Shown here: one piece after another, positions 4,483 through 47,689 of the stretch
Numbering within the stretch: position 1 is the first letter of the stretch
Layout of the letters: each line of letters opens with the position of its first letter
Assembly (NCBI GenBank): GCA_035402765.1
Contig: DAONDX010000001.1
Span: forward strand, 13,090-77,089
DNA length: 64,000 nucleotides
Source of the DNA: Candidatus Omnitrophota bacterium
GTDB taxonomy: Bacteria > Omnitrophota > Gorgyraeia > Gygaellales > Profunditerraquicolaceae
Direction: 5' to 3'
The notes under the pieces: model-generated
What the model saw: only the letters and a program-made list of their open reading frames with translations
Database searches by the model: none
What the model was told of the DNA's origin: nothing
Translations under genes and position numbers: made by a program

Positions 4483-4529
4483 CATTCTCCTCCGCTAAAA
4501 CTTAGCAGATTAACTACAGACTGTAATAA

Positions 4530-4712
4530 TCTTTTCTCATCTGGACTTTCGCCATTCGCATGGCACCATCGGCTCTGGCATTTCACCAGATCTGCAGCCG
4601 CATGAACTTATGCGGCGGCTCGCGGGCTTTTACGCCCGGCGTTAAATAAACGCCGGTGTGCGCTTCTGCGCTACCGCCGGTAAGGAGTTTCACCTTGCCC
4701 CAAAGATTAATT
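4530..4712 (-). promoter_or_regulatory. FMN riboswitch (RFN element) upstream of ribBA
   Basis: The reverse-complement reads GGGGCAAGGUGAAACUCCUUACCGGCGGUAGCGC...CCGCGAGCCG...GCAGAUCUGGUGAAAUGCCAGAGCCGAUGGUGCCAUGCGAAUGGCGAAAGUCCAGAUGAGAAAAG. This matches the conserved RFN blocks (CCGGCGGUA, CCGCGAGC, GAUCUGGUGAAAUUCCAGAGCCGACAGU, AAAGUCUGGAUGGGAGAAG). Confidence 0.85.
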
Positions 4713-13407: not shown

Positions 13408-13664
13408 CTAAGTTTTCCCAGTATCTCTTCATATTTCTTCATATCCTTATCCTTGAGATACTTGAGGAGTCTGCGGCGCCTACTTACCAGTAGCAGTAAC
13501 CCGCGGCGGGAATGGAGATCTTTTTTATGCGATTTAAAATGCAGACCTAAATCATTGATTCTCTCGGTTAAAATCGCTATCTGTACCTCAGCGCTTCCGG
13601 TATCCCTGGCATGCACTTTAAAATCATCAATTAATTTTGCTTTTTGTTCCTTGACCAAAACCAA
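13395..13664 (-). CDS. rpsO: 30S ribosomal protein S15
   Basis: 89 aa with LTERINDL and HSRRGLL. TTG start with SD AAGGGAGGT 6 nt upstream. Confidence 0.9.
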
Positions 13665-13780
13665 ATTTCTACCTCCCTTTTCTTAAAGATTATACGATAA
13701 TTAATTCCACAAGTCAACAGGTTAATATACTGAATAGATTTAATCTGCCGACAGATGAAATTATGGCGATCGGCTATCGG

Positions 13781-22509: not shown

Positions 22510-22761
22510 ATGCTTAAAAAATGCGTAATCTGCAAGAAAGGTGCACTGCAAGGGAAAGTATTATCCAGAAAAGGCCAGCATAAAGCTAAAGGCGGTACAG
22601 GCTCAAAGATCGCCCGTTGGTCTAAACGCAAATTTCTGCCTAATCTGCAAAAAGTTAACCTGCTGGTCGAAGGCACCTCAAAACGGGTTTATATCTGCGC
22701 CAAATGTATCAAAAAAGGCGGTTTTAAAAAAGTTACTCCCCGCGTCAAATTCACTACTTAA
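22510..22761 (+). CDS. rpmB: 50S ribosomal protein L28 (zinc-ribbon type)
   Basis: 83 aa with CxxC...CxxC and the conserved KFLPNLQKV block. Confidence 0.85.
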   Translation: MLKKCVICKKGALQGKVLSRKGQHKAKGGTGSKIARWSKRKFLPNLQKVNLLVEGTSKRVYICAKCIKKGGFKKVTPRVKFTT

Positions 22762-24442: not shown

Positions 24443-26083
24443 TTACATCTTCTCTGGCTGGGTAATTCCTAACAACTCTAATCCGCTGGATAAAACAATT
24501 TTTACCCCTTTGATCAAAGCTAACCGGGCGGCCATTAAAGACTGATCCTGATCCAATACCCGGTGTAAATCATAAAACTTGTGAAAACTTTCAGCCAGCT
24601 CCTGCAGATAAACCGTGAGCATATACGGATCGCAGGTAACCCGGCAAATGTTTAAAATCACATCAAATTCCAGCATTTTCTTAATTAAATTCAGCTCTTC
24701 TTTTTCCTTAAGCACGGTAAGGTCTAAATCGTTTTGAATCTCCAGCGCGCTGCTGCGCAATATGCTGCAGATCCGCGCGTGGGCATACTGGACATAGAAT
24801 ACCGGATTATCCGAACTTTGTTTTTTAGCCACTTCCAGATCAAAATCCAAATGGCTGGATGTCCGGCGCATCAAGAAGAAAAACCGGGCGGCATCCGGAC
24901 CAACTTCATCTAAGACCTCCCGTAAGGTTATATACTGTCCCCGCCGGGTCGACATTTGTATCTCCTGGCCATTGCGAAAAATAGTAGCTAATTGGACAAT
25001 CACCACATCCAGATCACGGCCTTTATGTCCTAAGGCCTCAATCGCCGCTTTGATCCGGCTGATATAACCGTGATGATCCGGCCCCCAAAGATTAATCAAC
25101 CAGCTAAACCCGCGGTCAAATTTGTCCTGATGATACGCAATATCCGGCGCCAGGTATGTTTGGCTGCCATCGCTTTTAATAATCACCCGGTCTTTATCGT
25201 CGCCAAAAACGGTGGATTTAAACCAAAGCGCCCCGTCTTGCTCATATAAAAATCCTTTTTCCTTTAGCTGAGCAAAGGCTTTTTCGATTTTACCGCTTTT
25301 AGCCAGCTGCTTTTGCGAATACCAACAATTAAATCTAACTCCAAAATCGTCCAATTCCTGTTTAATAACTTTTAAAATATAATCCCCAGCAAAGCTTCCC
25401 AAATCCGTATCCTTAATATTCTGGCTATCTGCGGCTTTGGCAATGTCATAAATATAATCACCCTGATAATAATTCTCCGGAAACTCTATTTTTTGGCCCT
25501 TTAATTCCTTAAGTCTCAAGCCCACTGATGCGCCCAGGATATTTATCTGATTGCCTTCATCATTAAGATAATATTCCCGGCTAACATCAAAACCGATAAA
25601 AGATAGAACATTAGCTAAACAATCTCCAACGGCTGCCTGCCGGGCGTGAGCCACAGATAAAGAACCGGTAGGATTAGCGCTGACAAATTCAATTAAAACT
25701 TTCCTTTTATCTGCCGTAACGGTTCTTAAAGCTTCTTTACCCCGGGTAATAATCTCCCTAAGCTTTTCATAAAAATAATCTTCTTTAAGGTAAAAATTGA
25801 CAAACCCTGCCCCTTCGACTTTAACTTGAGTAACCAGGTCTTGGAGCTGGGCAGATGCGGCGATCTTGTTTTGCAGGCAAGCGGTCAATTCTGCAGCAAT
25901 CACTTTAGGGGAACGTTTCTGTAATTTACTTAATTTTAAAGCAAGATTAGTGCTGAAATCACCAAAACGATTATCGGTAGGTAGATCGAGAGAAATTTTT
26001 TCCGGATAATCCCCCCGCCATCCTAAGTCCGTTAAACAACACGTAACTAAATCGGCTAGCTCTGCTTGAACATTTTTAGGCAT
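24443..26083 (-). CDS. argS: arginine--tRNA ligase
   Basis: 546 aa. The class I signature ANPTGSLSVAHAR is a HIGH-like motif and QMSTRRG is KMSK-like. An anticodon-binding DALR domain is also present. Confidence 0.9.
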   Translation of the reverse strand: MPKNVQAELADLVTCCLTDLGWRGDYPEKISLDLPTDNRFGDFSTNLALKLSKLQKRSPKVIAAELTACLQNKIAASAQLQDLVTQVKVEGAGFVNFYLKEDYFYEKLREIITRGKEALRTVTADKRKVLIEFVSANPTGSLSVAHARQAAVGDCLANVLSFIGFDVSREYYLNDEGNQINILGASVGLRLKELKGQKIEFPENYYQGDYIYDIAKAADSQNIKDTDLGSFAGDYILKVIKQELDDFGVRFNCWYSQKQLAKSGKIEKAFAQLKEKGFLYEQDGALWFKSTVFGDDKDRVIIKSDGSQTYLAPDIAYHQDKFDRGFSWLINLWGPDHHGYISRIKAAIEALGHKGRDLDVVIVQLATIFRNGQEIQMSTRRGQYITLREVLDEVGPDAARFFFLMRRTSSHLDFDLEVAKKQSSDNPVFYVQYAHARICSILRSSALEIQNDLDLTVLKEKEELNLIKKMLEFDVILNICRVTCDPYMLTVYLQELAESFHKFYDLHRVLDQDQSLMAARLALIKGVKIVLSSGLELLGITQPEKM

Positions 26084-26144
26084 TTTTATTTTTAATCGCG
26101 GTTGGCACTCACCTAAACGGTACTCAGGCGTCGGGCAATAGGCA

Positions 26145-26175
26145 GCACCAACGCAGCTACTTTAAGCGCGGGGTG
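26145..26175. repeat. degenerate copy of the ACACCRRCGC...GCGYYGGGTGT hairpin motif (between argS and rsfS)
   Basis: GCACCAACGCAGCTACTTTAAGCGCGGGGTG resembles the units of the 26572-26795 array. Confidence 0.3.
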
Positions 26176-26205
26176 ATTTCACTCGGCGCCAGATAAACGG
26201 CAAGC

Positions 26206-26562
26206 TTAAAACTTTGGGGTTTTGATCCTTACCCGTTTGGCGTCAGACCAAAGCCCCTCTAAAGAATAAAACTCTCTTACCGGTTTATAAAACGCATGCG
26301 CGATCACAGAAGCATAATCCAAGGCAATCCAGCCTGACTCATCGTTCGGGGAAACCTTTGAAAGAGATTTTATTTTTTGAGTTTCTAAATCATCTTGAAT
26401 TGCCCGGGCAATTGCAGCCGCCTGCCTTAAAGAATTACCGCTGGCAATCACAAAATAATCGCAAAACCCGGCTACCTTAGAAACATCCAGGATAATAACC
26501 TGTTCGGCTTTTTTAGATTTGGCAACCCAGGCAATGCGTTGCGCTAATTGTTTCGAGTCTAT
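26206..26562 (-). CDS. rsfS: ribosome silencing factor RsfS (Iojap); start codon uncertain
   Basis: The track ORF begins at the GTG at 26451. The in-frame upstream translation KIDSKQLAQRIAWVAKSKKAEQVIILDVSKVAGFCDYFV is clearly RsfS N-terminus, continuing to the in-frame stop at 26581-26583. No ATG, GTG or TTG occurs in that stretch. Confidence 0.7.
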   Translation of the reverse strand: MDSKQLAQRIAWVAKSKKAEQVIILDVSKVAGFCDYFVIASGNSLRQAAAIARAIQDDLETQKIKSLSKVSPNDESGWIALDYASVIAHAFYKPVREFYSLEGLWSDAKRVRIKTPKF

Positions 26563-26571
26563 TTTATACTC

Positions 26572-26795
26572 CTTGTCTACCTAGACAACACCAACGCAAT
26601 ACCTTTAAGCGTTGGGTGTCTTGTCTACCTAGACGACACCAACGCAATACCAATTAGCGTTGGGTGTAGTCCTCAGTCAAATTAAACACCGGCGCAAATC
26701 AAAATAAGAACCGGACGTCTTATTAACGTCGGATGCCGCTCTATTAACAACACCGGCGCAATACCAACCAGCGCCGGTTAACACTTACTGAATAA
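26572..26795. repeat. array of hairpin repeats: two 48-bp tandem units plus two related units with compensatory stem changes
   Basis: Units at 26572-26619 and 26620-26667 differ at 4 of 48 positions. Each contains the palindrome GTCTACCTAGAC and the hairpin ACACCAACGC-loop-GCGTTGGGTGT. Downstream units read ACACCGGCGCAATACCAACCAGCGCCGGTT and ACACCGGCGCAAATC..., keeping the pairing AACGC/GCGTT against GGCGC/GCGCC. Confidence 0.6.
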
Positions 26796-26809
26796 ACTAT
26801 TATTATCTC

Positions 26810-26962
26810 TTATTTAGCTTTCCCTAAGATCTTATACATTCCGGTTCCGCATTCAGGACATTTGCCTTTCATTGCTGCCCGGCCGTTTTTCATCGTTACC
26901 TTCTGCTCATCTTTCATTGTTTTCTTACCCTTACATTTTACGCAATATCCAGTTTCACCCAT
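26810..26962 (-). CDS. small zinc-ribbon protein (50 aa, CxxC...CPECG), not in the ORF track
   Basis: The ATG is preceded by AAGGAGG with a 6-nt spacer. The translation is MGETGYCVKCKGKKTMKDEQKVTMKNGRAAMKGKCPECGTGMYKILGKAK. It resembles a widespread 50-aa zinc-ribbon family (DUF5679-like; the DUF number is from memory). Confidence 0.6.
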   Translation of the reverse strand: MGETGYCVKCKGKKTMKDEQKVTMKNGRAAMKGKCPECGTGMYKILGKAK

Positions 26963-27007
26963 TTGTTTCCTCCTTTTTATGCAACATGCATGTTCCCATT
27001 ACCGTTA

Positions 27008-27036
27008 ATTTTAACATAGTAAATTTTTCATGTCAA
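27008..27036 (-). promoter_or_regulatory. sigma70-type promoter TTGACA-17-TAAAAT for the small zinc-ribbon gene
   Basis: The reverse-complement reads TTGACATGAAAAATTTACTATGTTAAAAT. It is followed by a 45-nt leader to the SD and the ATG at 26962. Confidence 0.5.
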
Positions 27037-27039
27037 ATA

Positions 27040-27071
27040 ATTAATGGGGCCTTCCCGCGGAAGCTCCGGGC
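27040..27071 (-). terminator. candidate intrinsic terminator after the CNNM/CBS gene
   Basis: The GC-rich palindrome GGCCCGGAGCUUCCGCGGGAAGGCCCC is followed by AUUAAUUAUUUG, 16 nt after the stop. Confidence 0.4.
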
Positions 27072-27086
27072 CTAAAGAATATCTGC

Positions 27087-28094
27087 CTACCCCTTGGAAT
27101 GCTTGCCTTTCATAGAATGCTTCTCTTCTATCTCTCCGACAATTTCTTCCAACAAGTCTTCTAAAGTAACCAGACCTAATGCTAAATTATTCTTGTCGGC
27201 GATAATGGCAATCTGAATCTTATCAGTTTGAAACCTCCTGAGCATCTCACTAACCCGCATTGAACTGGGGACAAAACAAGCCCCGTGCAGCAGATCCTGC
27301 AACAGGAATAAACCTTTTTCACGCAAAATATACAAAAGATCGCGGGCATAAACTATACCGATAATATTATCCTTCTTCCCTTGATATACCGGAAGCCGGG
27401 CATGCCCCTCTTCCACAAAAATACTTAACAAATCTTCGGAAGTAATATTGATATCTACCGCGATAATTTTTTCTTTAGGAACCATAACATCGGCTAATTT
27501 AGTATTTCCGAATTCAAAAATACGGTGGAACATCTTACGCTCTTCTTCACTTAAGACTCCCTCCTCCTGGCCAACCTCAATTAAGGTTTTTAATTCTTCC
27601 ACGGTAATCAAAGGGGATTTCTTAGCTGTGTCTGCTGCAAATATTTTTAAAAGGAAATTACTGATCCCAATAAAAAATGTGATAAAAGGTTTTAGAATTA
27701 CCAACGCCCCTTCCATAAACGGCGCGGTAAACAAAGCGACCTTTTCAGCATGTTTAGAAGCAAGTATTTTAGGAGTAACTTCACAAAAAATCAGCAAAAA
27801 TAAAGTTGTCGTAAAAGTAGAAACTACAACCCCCCAACGGTAACCGAAAATCGGAAGAAATATTCCGGTGACAATCGCCGAAACCGCGATATTTACCAGA
27901 TTATTACCGATGAGTATAGCCGCAATCACTTTATCTAATTTAGCTACCAGCCTGGCAACACTTTGAGCGCGCTTAATTTGCTGCTGCAGCATATGCCGCA
28001 GCCGGATTTTGCTTAATCCGATCATCGCGGTCTCAGATGCCGAAAAGAAAAAGGAAAGTACGACCAAAACTAATATAATTAAAAAAATAATCAT
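27087..28094 (-). CDS. hemolysin-family protein with a CNNM/DUF21 transmembrane domain and a CBS pair (no CorC_HlyC domain)
   Basis: The N-terminal four-TM DUF21 motif FFSASETA is followed by tandem CBS domains. The ORF ends after the CBS pair. Confidence 0.8.
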   Translation of the reverse strand: MIIFLIILVLVVLSFFFSASETAMIGLSKIRLRHMLQQQIKRAQSVARLVAKLDKVIAAILIGNNLVNIAVSAIVTGIFLPIFGYRWGVVVSTFTTTLFLLIFCEVTPKILASKHAEKVALFTAPFMEGALVILKPFITFFIGISNFLLKIFAADTAKKSPLITVEELKTLIEVGQEEGVLSEEERKMFHRIFEFGNTKLADVMVPKEKIIAVDINITSEDLLSIFVEEGHARLPVYQGKKDNIIGIVYARDLLYILREKGLFLLQDLLHGACFVPSSMRVSEMLRRFQTDKIQIAIIADKNNLALGLVTLEDLLEEIVGEIEEKHSMKGKHSKG

Positions 28095-45124: not shown

Positions 45125-47689
45125 TTAAATAATCGGATCCATGGTTAAAGCCGGATGCCCGGCTGTTTTTAAAAAAACCAGGAGCTCTTCGCAACTGGTT
45201 GCCGCGGATTCATCGGCAATTTTATCCAATAGGTCCGGCTGCCCGATTTCCCGGCATCTAGATCTAAGCTTATCCCCTAAAATTTCTTTTAACTCTTTGG
45301 GCATCCAGACTACTCTGGCTAATCCGCCTTCAGCTGAAATAAATTTCTTACTTAAAATATACAGCTTACCCACTCCCAAAAACCCCGGGGTCTGTACCCC
45401 GCCGCCAACTGAACCGGCTAAAGTAGTAAAACTCATCCCGGAAGGGGTAATTCCGGAATAATCACGGTGCACCAGCATTACGCCGTTAGCTTCAGGAACG
45501 ATCGCCACAATGCATTCGAAACAACCGCAGGAGGATTGCGGACCATCCATCAAAGAATACATACTTACCGTTTCGATCGTCTGATTGGATTTTTGCCGCA
45601 CAAAAGCGTTGACATTATCCCATCGGCCTAATCGTCCGTCTAAAAGATTGCCTTTGGGAATAGGCTGATTCGGCCCGCTGGGAATAATTTCAAAAGAAGC
45701 TTTAGCATCCAGCCAGGAATATGCCCCGCATAACCCCAACCGCTCAGGAGTAACTACGCAAACATGATTGGGAGCAAACGATTGGCATAACAAACAGGAA
45801 TAAAAAGTATCCACACTCTCATCGGTCATGCCGGCCAAACGTTCATCGCGCTGGTTATATGCCTGCTGGGCGCCGAGCGCGATCTTTTCAACATCCTCCC
45901 GGTTTGTATAAAGCTTAATCTGCACTTTATCCACGATAGCGCTATATTCCGAATGCAACATCGCATGTAAAATAATCCCCAGATGTTTAAGCCGAAAACC
46001 TTTCTGATAAGCATCTTTGGAAATTCTGATCCAAACCATATCGCGCTGGCCCATGTGCATCAGGCCCATCGCGTAATTAATAAAACGATGAATTTGCCTT
46101 TCCAATATCGGCTCAAAATCTTTTTGCATTTTACGGCCGAACACATCAACCACGATCGCCAAAGGCAGGTTAGTCGTCCCGGCGGCCAATTGATCAATAT
46201 CCGGACCGATCAATTCCACACTCGCGTCCGTTACATCAGATTCATCAGCAGAACTTAAAAACTCAATCGCTTTTGAAGCCTGGCCTCCGAATTCAACCGC
46301 CAGCTGCTCTTTACGCACACGCTCACCTTCAAAAGCAGCCGCATACGGAACAGGGACCGCCACCTGCGACATTTTAACTTTAATCCCGCGGGTCAAGATG
46401 CATTTAGAAGATAATTTCCGATAATCCTGTTCAGTAACTAAAGCCTCAAATAAAGTAGTGTCCATCTTACCTACTTGCGGCACATCTAAATCAGTAATGA
46501 CCGGCAAACCAAAAGCCATCGCCCCTAAGCCCGTAGCAACTAAAAGCTCATCCACATGACTGAGCAATAAAACAAATGCGGGAACCCGGTTACGAATATA
46601 ATCTGCTATCCCTTCCCACTGCCCAGGCTTATTGCCGCCGTAAATCAATGGAGCGCGTATCGCGAAATTAACCGCGTAAATCGCCGAAAGATAGTCCTGG
46701 CCTAAAGGCACAATATAATTCTCCAGGCCTAATTGAACCCCCTGATTCTGAAGCTGTTGCTTAAAAGTACTGCCGTTAATATTACCGGCCAGAAAACTGA
46801 CAATACTTTTAGACTGAAAATCACGGATTAATTCCACCGCAGATTGTTCGTCTTTAGCCGGGCCCAGAATTACCGCGATTCCGGCGATCCTGCCGTCAAC
46901 TAATTGCAAACCCAACGACCGTAAAATATTATCCGGGATAAAACCCAACCCCTCCACCGGATGTTTCTGGTTCAATACCGCTAAAGCCGCTAAAATTTCC
47001 TCGCAAATTAAAGTTGCCACAGCCCGGTTTAATAAACCTCCGTAGCCCTTAATGGACAGTCCGCTGGGAATAATTTGGTTATTCGCCAAAGCTTCTGCCT
47101 GAGCAAAAGCCGTTGAACAATCCTGTAAACTTTTTACCTCAATATTCAACAAAGCATTGACCAAAGGCAAATAATAGTTAGTTTCCCCAAACCCGATCGC
47201 CGCAGCCTGGCCTTTTTCACTTATCGCGCTGGCTAAAGATTGACGCGTAAGATTTAATACATCCTCTGAACCCTTTGTTCCCAGATCTACCAACAATTGA
47301 GGCAATACCCCGGGGCCGGACTGCTCTGCGGCCGGTAGCGGCATCGCTTCATCCACAAAGATCACTAAACATACCCCGATAGCTTTACCGCCCTTGAATT
47401 TTACCGCTTCTGCGCGCCCTTCACCGACAATTTCCTGTATTAAAGCATCAATGATTTGGATATCCGCAGGCAGCTCTTCAGCAATCTTATCACTGCTTAC
47501 CAGCTTAATCGGAACTTTATATTTTTCATGCAACAGCCTGGCCAGCCTTAAAGCGCCGGGCGTCTGGCCGCCGATGCAAACAGTATCATTGATCAGATAA
47601 GCATCTAATTTCTTTAAATCATCTTCGCAGCTGACTAAAACTACCCCTTTTTTCCTTGCTCCGGGTATTTGCGGTAAATTAACGGCCAT
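45125..47689 (-). CDS. acsB: CO dehydrogenase/acetyl-CoA synthase beta subunit (acetyl-CoA synthase, AcsB/CdhC family) with an N-terminal extension of about 120-150 aa
   Basis: Strong matches to AcsB blocks: DESVDTFYSCLLCQSFAPNHVCVVTPERLGLCGAYSWLDAKAS, SCGCFECIVAIVPEANGVM, GGVQTPGFLGVGKLYILSKKFISAEGG and the C-terminal HPALTMDPI. Confidence 0.85.
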   Translation of the reverse strand: MAVNLPQIPGARKKGVVLVSCEDDLKKLDAYLINDTVCIGGQTPGALRLARLLHEKYKVPIKLVSSDKIAEELPADIQIIDALIQEIVGEGRAEAVKFKGGKAIGVCLVIFVDEAMPLPAAEQSGPGVLPQLLVDLGTKGSEDVLNLTRQSLASAISEKGQAAAIGFGETNYYLPLVNALLNIEVKSLQDCSTAFAQAEALANNQIIPSGLSIKGYGGLLNRAVATLICEEILAALAVLNQKHPVEGLGFIPDNILRSLGLQLVDGRIAGIAVILGPAKDEQSAVELIRDFQSKSIVSFLAGNINGSTFKQQLQNQGVQLGLENYIVPLGQDYLSAIYAVNFAIRAPLIYGGNKPGQWEGIADYIRNRVPAFVLLLSHVDELLVATGLGAMAFGLPVITDLDVPQVGKMDTTLFEALVTEQDYRKLSSKCILTRGIKVKMSQVAVPVPYAAAFEGERVRKEQLAVEFGGQASKAIEFLSSADESDVTDASVELIGPDIDQLAAGTTNLPLAIVVDVFGRKMQKDFEPILERQIHRFINYAMGLMHMGQRDMVWIRISKDAYQKGFRLKHLGIILHAMLHSEYSAIVDKVQIKLYTNREDVEKIALGAQQAYNQRDERLAGMTDESVDTFYSCLLCQSFAPNHVCVVTPERLGLCGAYSWLDAKASFEIIPSGPNQPIPKGNLLDGRLGRWDNVNAFVRQKSNQTIETVSMYSLMDGPQSSCGCFECIVAIVPEANGVMLVHRDYSGITPSGMSFTTLAGSVGGGVQTPGFLGVGKLYILSKKFISAEGGLARVVWMPKELKEILGDKLRSRCREIGQPDLLDKIADESAATSCEELLVFLKTAGHPALTMDPII

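Follow-up and report, generated by a model that had tools for sequence, protein, structure and literature searches.

A dispersed two-hairpin repeat of Omnitrophota, clustered upstream of rsfS and frequently abutting Shine-Dalgarno sequences

Between a small zinc-ribbon gene and rsfS in a contig of a Candidatus Omnitrophota bacterium lies a cluster of short hairpin repeats, and the question raised by this locus is whether the cluster is an RNA structure belonging to the rsfS operon, a set of sites for a DNA-binding protein, or a group of copies of an element that occurs also elsewhere. Omnitrophota are uncultured, mostly ultra-small bacteria, and to our knowledge almost nothing is known about their gene expression. 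The whole stretch of DNA analysed here, called the window below, has a length of 64,000 nucleotides. It seems probable, while falling well short of certain, that the rsfS array is a lineage-specific cluster of copies of a dispersed REP/MITE-like mobile repeat of about 47 nt, the persisting copies of which are sense-strand RNA leaders.

The array in the rsfS region

All the genes concerned are on the minus strand, in the order CNNM/CBS (27087-28094), DUF5679, array, rsfS, argS (24443-26083) and recJ, and the repeats are therefore best read as the reverse complement. The DUF5679 zinc-ribbon gene (26810-26962, minus strand, 50 aa; Pfam PF18930, E 1.8e-15) forms the context upstream of the array and stands outside the repeat family. 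The promoter-like site TTGACA-17-TAAAAT named in the original prediction is present at 27036-27008 on the minus strand and matches at 11 of 12 positions. The RsfS of the window shares 99% identity with a protein that was named from a MAG of Candidatus Omnitrophota.

The two 48-bp tandem units described earlier (26572-26619 and 26620-26667) are real and 92% identical to each other, and the covariance models R1 and R2 detect them at 66-72 bits with E of about 1e-15. In RNA sense they read ACACCCAACGC-N5-GGUAUU-GCGUUGGUGU-(U/C)-GUCUAGGUAGAC-AAG. The unit proximal to rsfS (26575-26621, minus strand; R1 72.2 bits, R2 66.2 bits) consists of two hairpins, P1 and P2, with the sequence AGACACCCAACGC-UUAAAGGUAUU-GCGUUGGUGU-U-GUCUAGGUAGAC, and its tandem copy (26623-26669, minus strand; R1 68.3 bits, R2 65.5 bits) lies 48 nt upstream with the junction ...GACAAG|ACACC... 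between the two. The second unit in RNA order continues directly into GAGUAUAAA-AUA-GAC-UCG, where rsfS has its ribosome-binding site and 5' end; as read from the sequence, the Shine-Dalgarno sequence (SD) AAGGAG (26569-26574, minus strand) stands directly 3' of P2 and is followed by the spacer UAUAAA and an AUA start at 26560-26562. The repeat pattern originally proposed, ACACCRRCGCAATACC, occurs beyond chance, with six matches at up to three mismatches and a mean of 1.03 in 100 shuffles, none of which reached six. The motif GTCTACCTAGAC had been taken for a perfect palindrome; it has in fact 5-nt arms around CC, and in RNA sense it forms the mini-hairpin GUCU-AGGU-AGAC.

The array holds two intact copies and several decayed ones. 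Two further units had been claimed at a spacing of about 55 bp; one of them is a hairpin at 26750-26781 (CCGGCGC/GCGCCGG) that has P1 only and scores 29.5-32.5 bits, the other is a lone arm at 26685-26695, and the start-to-start spacings in the array are 48, 50 and 64 nt. The P1-only hairpin, AACCGGCGC-UGGUUGGUAUU-GCGCCGGUGUU (26743-26783, minus strand; R2 32.5 bits, E 1e-6; R1 29.5 bits), lies 28 nt past the DUF5679 stop codon and is followed by no P2, and the change from AACGC:GCGTT to GGCGC:GCGCC between units keeps the pairing, as had been noticed. The lone arm is an orphan 3' arm GCGCCGGUGUU (26685-26695, minus strand; R2 14.6 bits) with its own 5' arm absent; its sole possible partner is 26773-26781, an arm also used by the hairpin at 26750, and an equivalent orphan arm is present in the orthologous array of locus L064. 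A terminator scan detected within the array a terminator-like hairpin GACGUUAAUAAGACGUC with the U-rich tail CGGUUCUUAUUUUGAUUU (26700-26730, minus strand), and this separate hairpin (26714-26730) is the only terminator-like site there. On the other side of rsfS, in the spacer towards argS, the degenerate copy that had been proposed was detected (26135-26178, minus strand; R1 16.6 bits, E 0.16; R2 14.3 bits), as a weak match of 14-17 bits with E of about 0.1. This spacer has 122 nt in the window and 38-41 nt in the relatives L192 and L193.

A search of the window against Rfam 15 at the gathering threshold returned the FMN riboswitch alone, and over 25900-27200 with E up to 10 it gave only chance-level matches, none of them a family match to the array. 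A literature search on repeats and RNA motifs of Omnitrophota or Omnitrophica and on the P2 sequence found no description of such an element, and the two-hairpin repeat has apparently gone undescribed so far.

Structure and distribution of the repeat family

The unit of about 47 nt is made of P1, a hairpin of 10 bp with one bulged C and an 11-nt loop, and of P2, which follows with a linker of 0 nt and is itself usually followed by the SD. The P1 consensus in RNA sense is RCA-C-CCNNCGC / GCGNNGG-UGU, with a 3-bp foot (RCA/UGU), the bulged C and 7 bp, and the consensus of its loop is YNANNKGWAUU, in which A16, G20, U23 and U24 are nearly invariant. P2 has 4-6 bp of free sequence and mostly an NNGU tetraloop, and its sequence is swapped between copies with the pairing kept (GUGU/ACAC, GCCC/GGGC, CCUCC/GGAGG). 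Paired cells amount to 98-99% (98.3% in the pattern-unbiased set), and in the pattern-unbiased set 11 of the 14 pairs have changes on both sides, the observed covariation score was reached by none of 500 shuffles, and sliding the partner columns abolished the signal. RNAalifold on an independent MAFFT alignment recovered both P1 and P2 with the 0-nt linker. Cells with G·U outnumber those with A·C in two alignments (57 vs 3 and 68 vs 11), with the caveat that one position gives 44 of the 68 G·U cells and that the alignments were fitted with covariance models; the excess of G·U indicates that the pairing is selected on the sense strand, co-oriented with the downstream gene. In an in-silico insulator test the native units gave no convincing gain in predicted SD accessibility, the predicted unpaired probability of the SD being 0.55 with native and 0.49 with shuffled units (p = 0.07).

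Several known kinds of signal were tried for the unit and dropped. CsrA/RsmA GGA sites do not fit the loops, as position 21 of the P1 loop is A in 75 of 121 and U in 44, position 19 is U in 23, and the P2 loops are of the type NNGU (AGGU, UCGU, ACGU, UUGU and others). A sigma-70 promoter inside the unit was rejected since P2 varies and there is no conserved -10 element, and a tRNA-like or K-turn-like nature of P1 was rejected on inspection.

An exact-pattern scan of species-representative genomes, with one genome per species, found 57 loci, of which 54 are in 18 MAGs labelled Omnitrophota or Omnitrophica (up to 16 loci in one MAG), two carry a Planctomycetales label and one, from an Acidobacteriota MAG, is a chance hit. 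A second pattern, in which only P1 was constrained and P2, the SD and everything downstream were left free, found at least 118 metagenome loci, and matches to the covariance models number 96 in 468 kb and 142 in 614 kb. A scan of 2.9 million viral contigs gave one match, which speaks against a phage link.

The window itself has three loci by covariance model R2. A unit in the 5'UTR of rpmB (L28; 22449-22495, plus strand; R1 39.5 bits; R2 46.8 bits, E 1e-10) has the P2 GUGU-UCGU-ACAC; behind it come GAGGAG, 8 nt and the AUG at 22510, and a sigma-70-like promoter is located about 60 nt upstream. The rsfS and rpmB loci are 4 kb apart and in opposite orientations, each matching its own gene. A unit-like element was also detected at 4630-4671 on the plus strand (R2 27.2 bits, E of about 3e-5), within the variable region of the FMN riboswitch (4525-4711, minus strand) and antisense to it. 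The riboswitch match takes up 187 nt for a model of 138 positions, the extra 49 nt or so being this antisense two-hairpin element, and in L180 the orthologous riboswitch carries a nested composite unit at this position.

The repeat breaks short-read assemblies. The DUF5679 protein is identical in nine metagenome contigs, three of which (L005, L006 and L009) end inside the repeat, and contig L008 (Ga0209098_1053473) is chimeric at 1331-1440, where it matches the window up to unit 2 and then the copy immediately upstream of rplP. This switch inside the repeat indicates that further copies are present elsewhere in the genome.

Position relative to genes, gain and loss

In the 67 leaders derived from genomes the unit has the same orientation as the next gene and P2 ends 5-18 nt, most often 11-14 nt, before the start codon; about 40% of these units are within about 25 nt after an ORF on the same strand, and the others are in primary 5'UTRs beside divergent genes. 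Among the 121 metagenome leaders the start is at a distance of at most 30 nt in 76 and of 31-75 nt in 13, which are mostly composites, and the tRNA-adjacent units number five by automatic classification and at least seven by eye. At least 78% (about 80%) of the 121 stand directly before a co-oriented start codon or a tRNA, several of those in the class 'other' being short ORFs or contig ends. In most copies GGAG begins exactly where P2 ends. About 10% of the copies run antisense to the neighbouring genes, precede a promoter or lie beside terminators, so the orientation bias is not absolute. The downstream genes are unrelated: the 110 proteins represent 142 Pfam families, each with three members at most, which excludes a riboswitch or a regulon-specific leader.

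Some arrangements differ from the usual one. In the P2 variant UCCUCC-NNGU-GGAGGA, seen before pgk and argH orthologues (L081, L100, L119, L134, L146, L149 and L179), the SD doubles as the 3' strand of P2, which predicts that it is sequestered. At three loci (L147, a pgk orthologue, L161 and L067) there is no recognisable SD and the start codon lies 0-3 nt past P2. Units abut tRNA genes for Gly, Pro, Lys and Leu (L028 at 650-696, L069, L089, L096, L098, L157, L175 and L178), with the 3' strand of P2 taking the first 2-3 tRNA bases and a P2 of the form CGC-AAUAGGUAUU-GCG that resembles the top of the P1 hairpin. Others are followed by an A-run and a terminator hairpin instead of a gene, often antisense between two genes (L117, L122, L123, L176 and L177), and these could be stand-alone small RNAs or dead copies.

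Comparison of orthologous loci reveals gain and loss of the unit, which is facultative at any given gene. The synteny CNNM-DUF5679-rsfS-argS is kept in relatives with RsfS 60-94% identical and the array absent; it was not found at any of 11 fetched orthologous rsfS loci, 8 of them distinct and several being copies of one sequence. The spacer between DUF5679 and rsfS has about 250 nt in the window and about 20-55 nt in the relatives, where the stop codon is followed by a few spacer nucleotides, (A)GGAG, 6-7 nt and AUA, with no unit. Only the window and LacPavin MAG_41_16 (L064, RsfS 92% identical) have the array at rsfS, and the two arrays differ in detail, while in the JAPLLZ MAG the rsfS site is empty and units are found at other loci. 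The array thus appears to be a recent insertion that extended the spacer from about 30 to about 250 nt, and with the longer spacer rsfS would get a structured leader ending in P2-AAGGAG-N6-AUA. As a conjecture, the array with its terminator-like hairpin may partly uncouple DUF5679 and rsfS.

Conversely, some sites that are filled in relatives are empty in the window, most clearly the 5'UTR of rpsO, where L032 (5560-5720) has a 96-nt nested composite between ...UAUAAUCUUUAAGAAAG and AGGAGG and the window is continuous. The rpsO gene (S15) of the window (13640-13720, minus strand) is preceded by a TTGACT-17-TATAAT promoter and its 5'UTR is short, at about 15 nt; the composite of L032 sits after the predicted transcription start and before the SD, with AAG on both sides of the insert. 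AAG also stands at the tandem junctions, and an AAG target-site duplication or an insertion into AAG|GAG would suit this filled and empty pair and the GUCUAGGUAGAC clade, but the flank 5' of the unit shows no conservation across the broad set; directly before P1, AG is found in one clade only, and these two bases vary in the pattern-unbiased set. At L156 (1561-1604) a complete unit is in frame within a conserved ORF and translated as ...SSDSTPRLLELRGCLPGGENIQV..., and the window orthologue of this ORF (about 47357-47512, minus strand, 74% identical) has ...SSDKIAEELPADIQI... instead and no unit.

Nested and tandem copies are common. Direct tandems have the form unit-AAG-unit-AAGGAG, and nested copies have a complete inner unit in the apex of the outer P1 loop, with different NN pairs in the inner and outer stems. 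There is only one recurrent inverted pair (L085, L116 and L118). By a hand count of scores the SD-proximal unit is the closest to consensus in 15 arrays vs 7, which is not significant. The units could be linked to no transposase and show neither terminal inverted repeats nor a consistent target duplication. The 1.25 Mb of fetched Omnitrophota loci, a small sample of loci rather than whole genomes, contain three IS200-like Y1 transposase genes (PF01797; L030 4173-4751, L140 3792-4466 and L055 5042-5629), each flanked by palindromes of its own that differ from one another and from the P1-P2 unit. An association with RAYTs was accordingly dropped, and classical systems of REP/RAYT type may coexist with the P1-P2 family.

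Explanations and relation to known repeats

In the explanation favoured here, the repeat would spread and turn over like a mobile element of the REP/MITE type, and its persisting copies would be transcribed in sense as parts of mRNA or tRNA leaders and be constrained to fold on that strand. The unit would then be a generic RNA leader module rather than a gene-specific switch, either as a structured 5' boundary of the ribosome-binding site or as a determinant of processing or stability, and P1 could be a sequence-specific handle for some factor. More tentatively, it is possible, if rather doubtful, that the unit is a working RNA device in which a factor peculiar to the clade recognises P1 by its sequence (an endoribonuclease, a ribosome-associated protein, or a reverse-transcriptase-like or transposase-like enzyme acting on the sense strand) and P2 is the structured 5' boundary of the ribosome-binding site, the whole being a portable cassette that punctuates polycistronic transcripts and tRNA precursors, or an element homing to the SD. 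The SD-less starts close to P2, the SD-containing P2 (CCUCC-NNGU-GGAGG) and the terminator-followed copies, which look like small RNAs, are hints of such a device.

The copies could instead belong to a purely selfish element acting at the level of DNA (REP/REPIN or a minimal derivative of IS200/IS605), the hairpins of which matter only as single-stranded substrates of a transposase, with the position beside the SD reflecting target preference and purifying selection and no RNA function. The gain and loss between close relatives with clear filled and empty sites, the in-frame copy in the L156 ORF, the antisense copy in the FMN riboswitch, the nested insertion into P1 loops, the presence of Y1_Tnp genes in these genomes, the AAG on both sides of the rpsO insert and the lack of a measurable gain in predicted SD accessibility are all in line with it. 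However, about 80-90% of the copies are co-oriented with the adjacent gene, including the two opposite loci 4 kb apart in the window, P2 stands exactly at GGAG in most copies, its 3' strand is sometimes formed by the SD (CCUCC...GGAGG) or by the opening bases of a tRNA, the Y1 transposases encountered have other palindromes on their flanks, and the broad set has no conserved tetranucleotide 5' of P1, and we regard the selfish reading as unlikely, with some real chance of being right. We give somewhat less credit to a dedicated cis-acting site for one trans-acting factor, be it an operon-punctuating endoribonuclease, a global RNA-binding regulator or a ribosome-associated protein, with P1 as the hairpin for recognition and P2 as the one that protects or clamps the newly made 5' end. 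Such a site would suit the near invariance of the P1 sequence, the bulged C, A16, G20, U23 and U24 across clades next to a P2 conserved in shape only, the absence of a linker between the hairpins, the units between cistrons, in primary 5'UTRs and before tRNAs, the different and non-interfering NN pairs of nested stems, and the copies that resemble small stand-alone RNAs in being followed by a terminator. Orthologous genes nevertheless manage without the unit, no candidate factor was identified, and the stray copy in an ORF and the antisense copy in a riboswitch would be unexpected for a purely functional site.

The original prediction of a structured RNA holds in that the hairpins have true compensatory variation and a sense-strand constraint across hundreds of relatives. 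Its more specific version, a 3'UTR structure, attenuator or riboswitch of the rsfS operon, has in its favour that a single 5' arm has two alternative 3' partners (26759-26750 or 26695-26685) and that the terminator-like hairpin lies between these two, but units precede unrelated genes, namely rpmB in the window, rplP in the same genome and genes of 142 Pfam families in relatives, and the array is entirely absent from the orthologous spacers of relatives and without a match in Rfam. The units are also unlike intrinsic terminators or attenuators, as they have no U-tracts, P2 coming straight after P1 and the SD straight after P2, and we consider an rsfS-specific element very improbable. Operators in duplex DNA for a dimeric DNA-binding protein, suggested earlier since GTCTA-CC-TAGAC and the P1 arms are inverted repeats, are hardly credible at all: the sequence of P2 changes completely between copies with the pairing kept, G·U is tolerated far more often than A·C, and the P1 loop is asymmetric, conserved and able to contain nested copies. 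It had also been reasoned that many copies scattered in the genome without conserved structure would make the array a generic REP element; dispersed copies are indeed many, but their structure is kept and their fixed position and orientation beside the SD are very unlike REP.

The closest parallels to the element as favoured here, a dispersed repeat with persisting RNA leader copies, are the REP/BIME/REPIN sequences of Enterobacteria and Pseudomonas (REP-RAYT), which are also short GC-rich imperfect hairpins with compensatory stem changes, number tens or more per genome, lie in the intergenic spacers of operons, are transcribed together with their neighbours, cluster locally, and are gained and lost between relatives; the many extragenic palindromes per genome that mark such systems are found here too, with up to 16 loci per MAG. 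In contrast to these, the Omnitrophota unit has two different hairpins in fixed order and a consensus common to at least 18 species-level MAGs. REP/BIME/REPIN lie after genes in either orientation or as inverted doublets, whereas the Omnitrophota unit is in sense in about 80-90% of cases and ends exactly at the SD, its clusters are direct tandems or nested, a GTAG-type tetranucleotide at the 5' foot is absent, and the 1.25 Mb of fetched loci contain no Y1 gene flanked by the repeats. Rickettsia palindromic elements (RPE) are likewise dispersed hairpin repeats and resemble the copies in frame in a gene (the L156 ORF) and in an RNA element (the FMN riboswitch), but they are 100-150 bp long, mostly intragenic and without a link to ribosome-binding sites, and intragenic copies are a rare exception in Omnitrophota. 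The Correia (NEMIS) repeats of Neisseria and the ERIC/IRU repeats of Enterobacteria are also small non-autonomous repeats in mRNAs and can alter the processing, stability or expression of the adjacent gene. They differ in having 100-150 bp, terminal inverted repeats, a TA duplication and both orientations, compared to the 47 nt, lack of terminal inverted repeats and fixed SD register of the Omnitrophota unit. As regards MITEs, terminal inverted repeats are absent and P1 and P2 are unrelated hairpins, and AAG flanks the rpsO insert and occurs at the tandem junctions, without recurring in the broader set. It shares with the cis-regulatory leaders of Rfam (riboswitches, ribosomal-protein leaders) the covarying sense-strand hairpins immediately before the SD, but it has no specificity for a gene family, no conservation between orthologues and no match in Rfam 15, and it is multi-copy, tandem and nested.

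Dispersed hairpin repeats are already known, and the new aspect here is the SD-abutting, sense-oriented design with two hairpins. The Omnitrophota repeat unites an unusual trio of features, as two covarying hairpins stand in exact register with the ribosome-binding site, are found in many species and apparently still move between loci, and it would be a natural case of a portable leader cassette. The P1-P2 unit could also be used as a concrete RNA bait for a new RNA-binding or processing factor or for a new site-directed mobile element.

For annotation, the P1-P2 family merits a covariance model of its own, and the repeat may account for broken assemblies and wrongly called starts in these genomes. 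The rsfS gene of the window has no ATG, GTG or TTG start; its frame opens after an in-frame UAG, the Pfam match of RsfS requires the N-terminal extension, and the only plausible start is the AUA located 6-7 nt past GGAG. Because of this AUA start, RsfS is mis-called by gene callers as truncated or extended, with lengths of 81-158 aa in databases. The AUA is kept in 8 of the 9 distinct orthologous loci read (window, L064, L185-L188 and L192-L195; the check did not extend to L189/L190 and L191), with or without the array.
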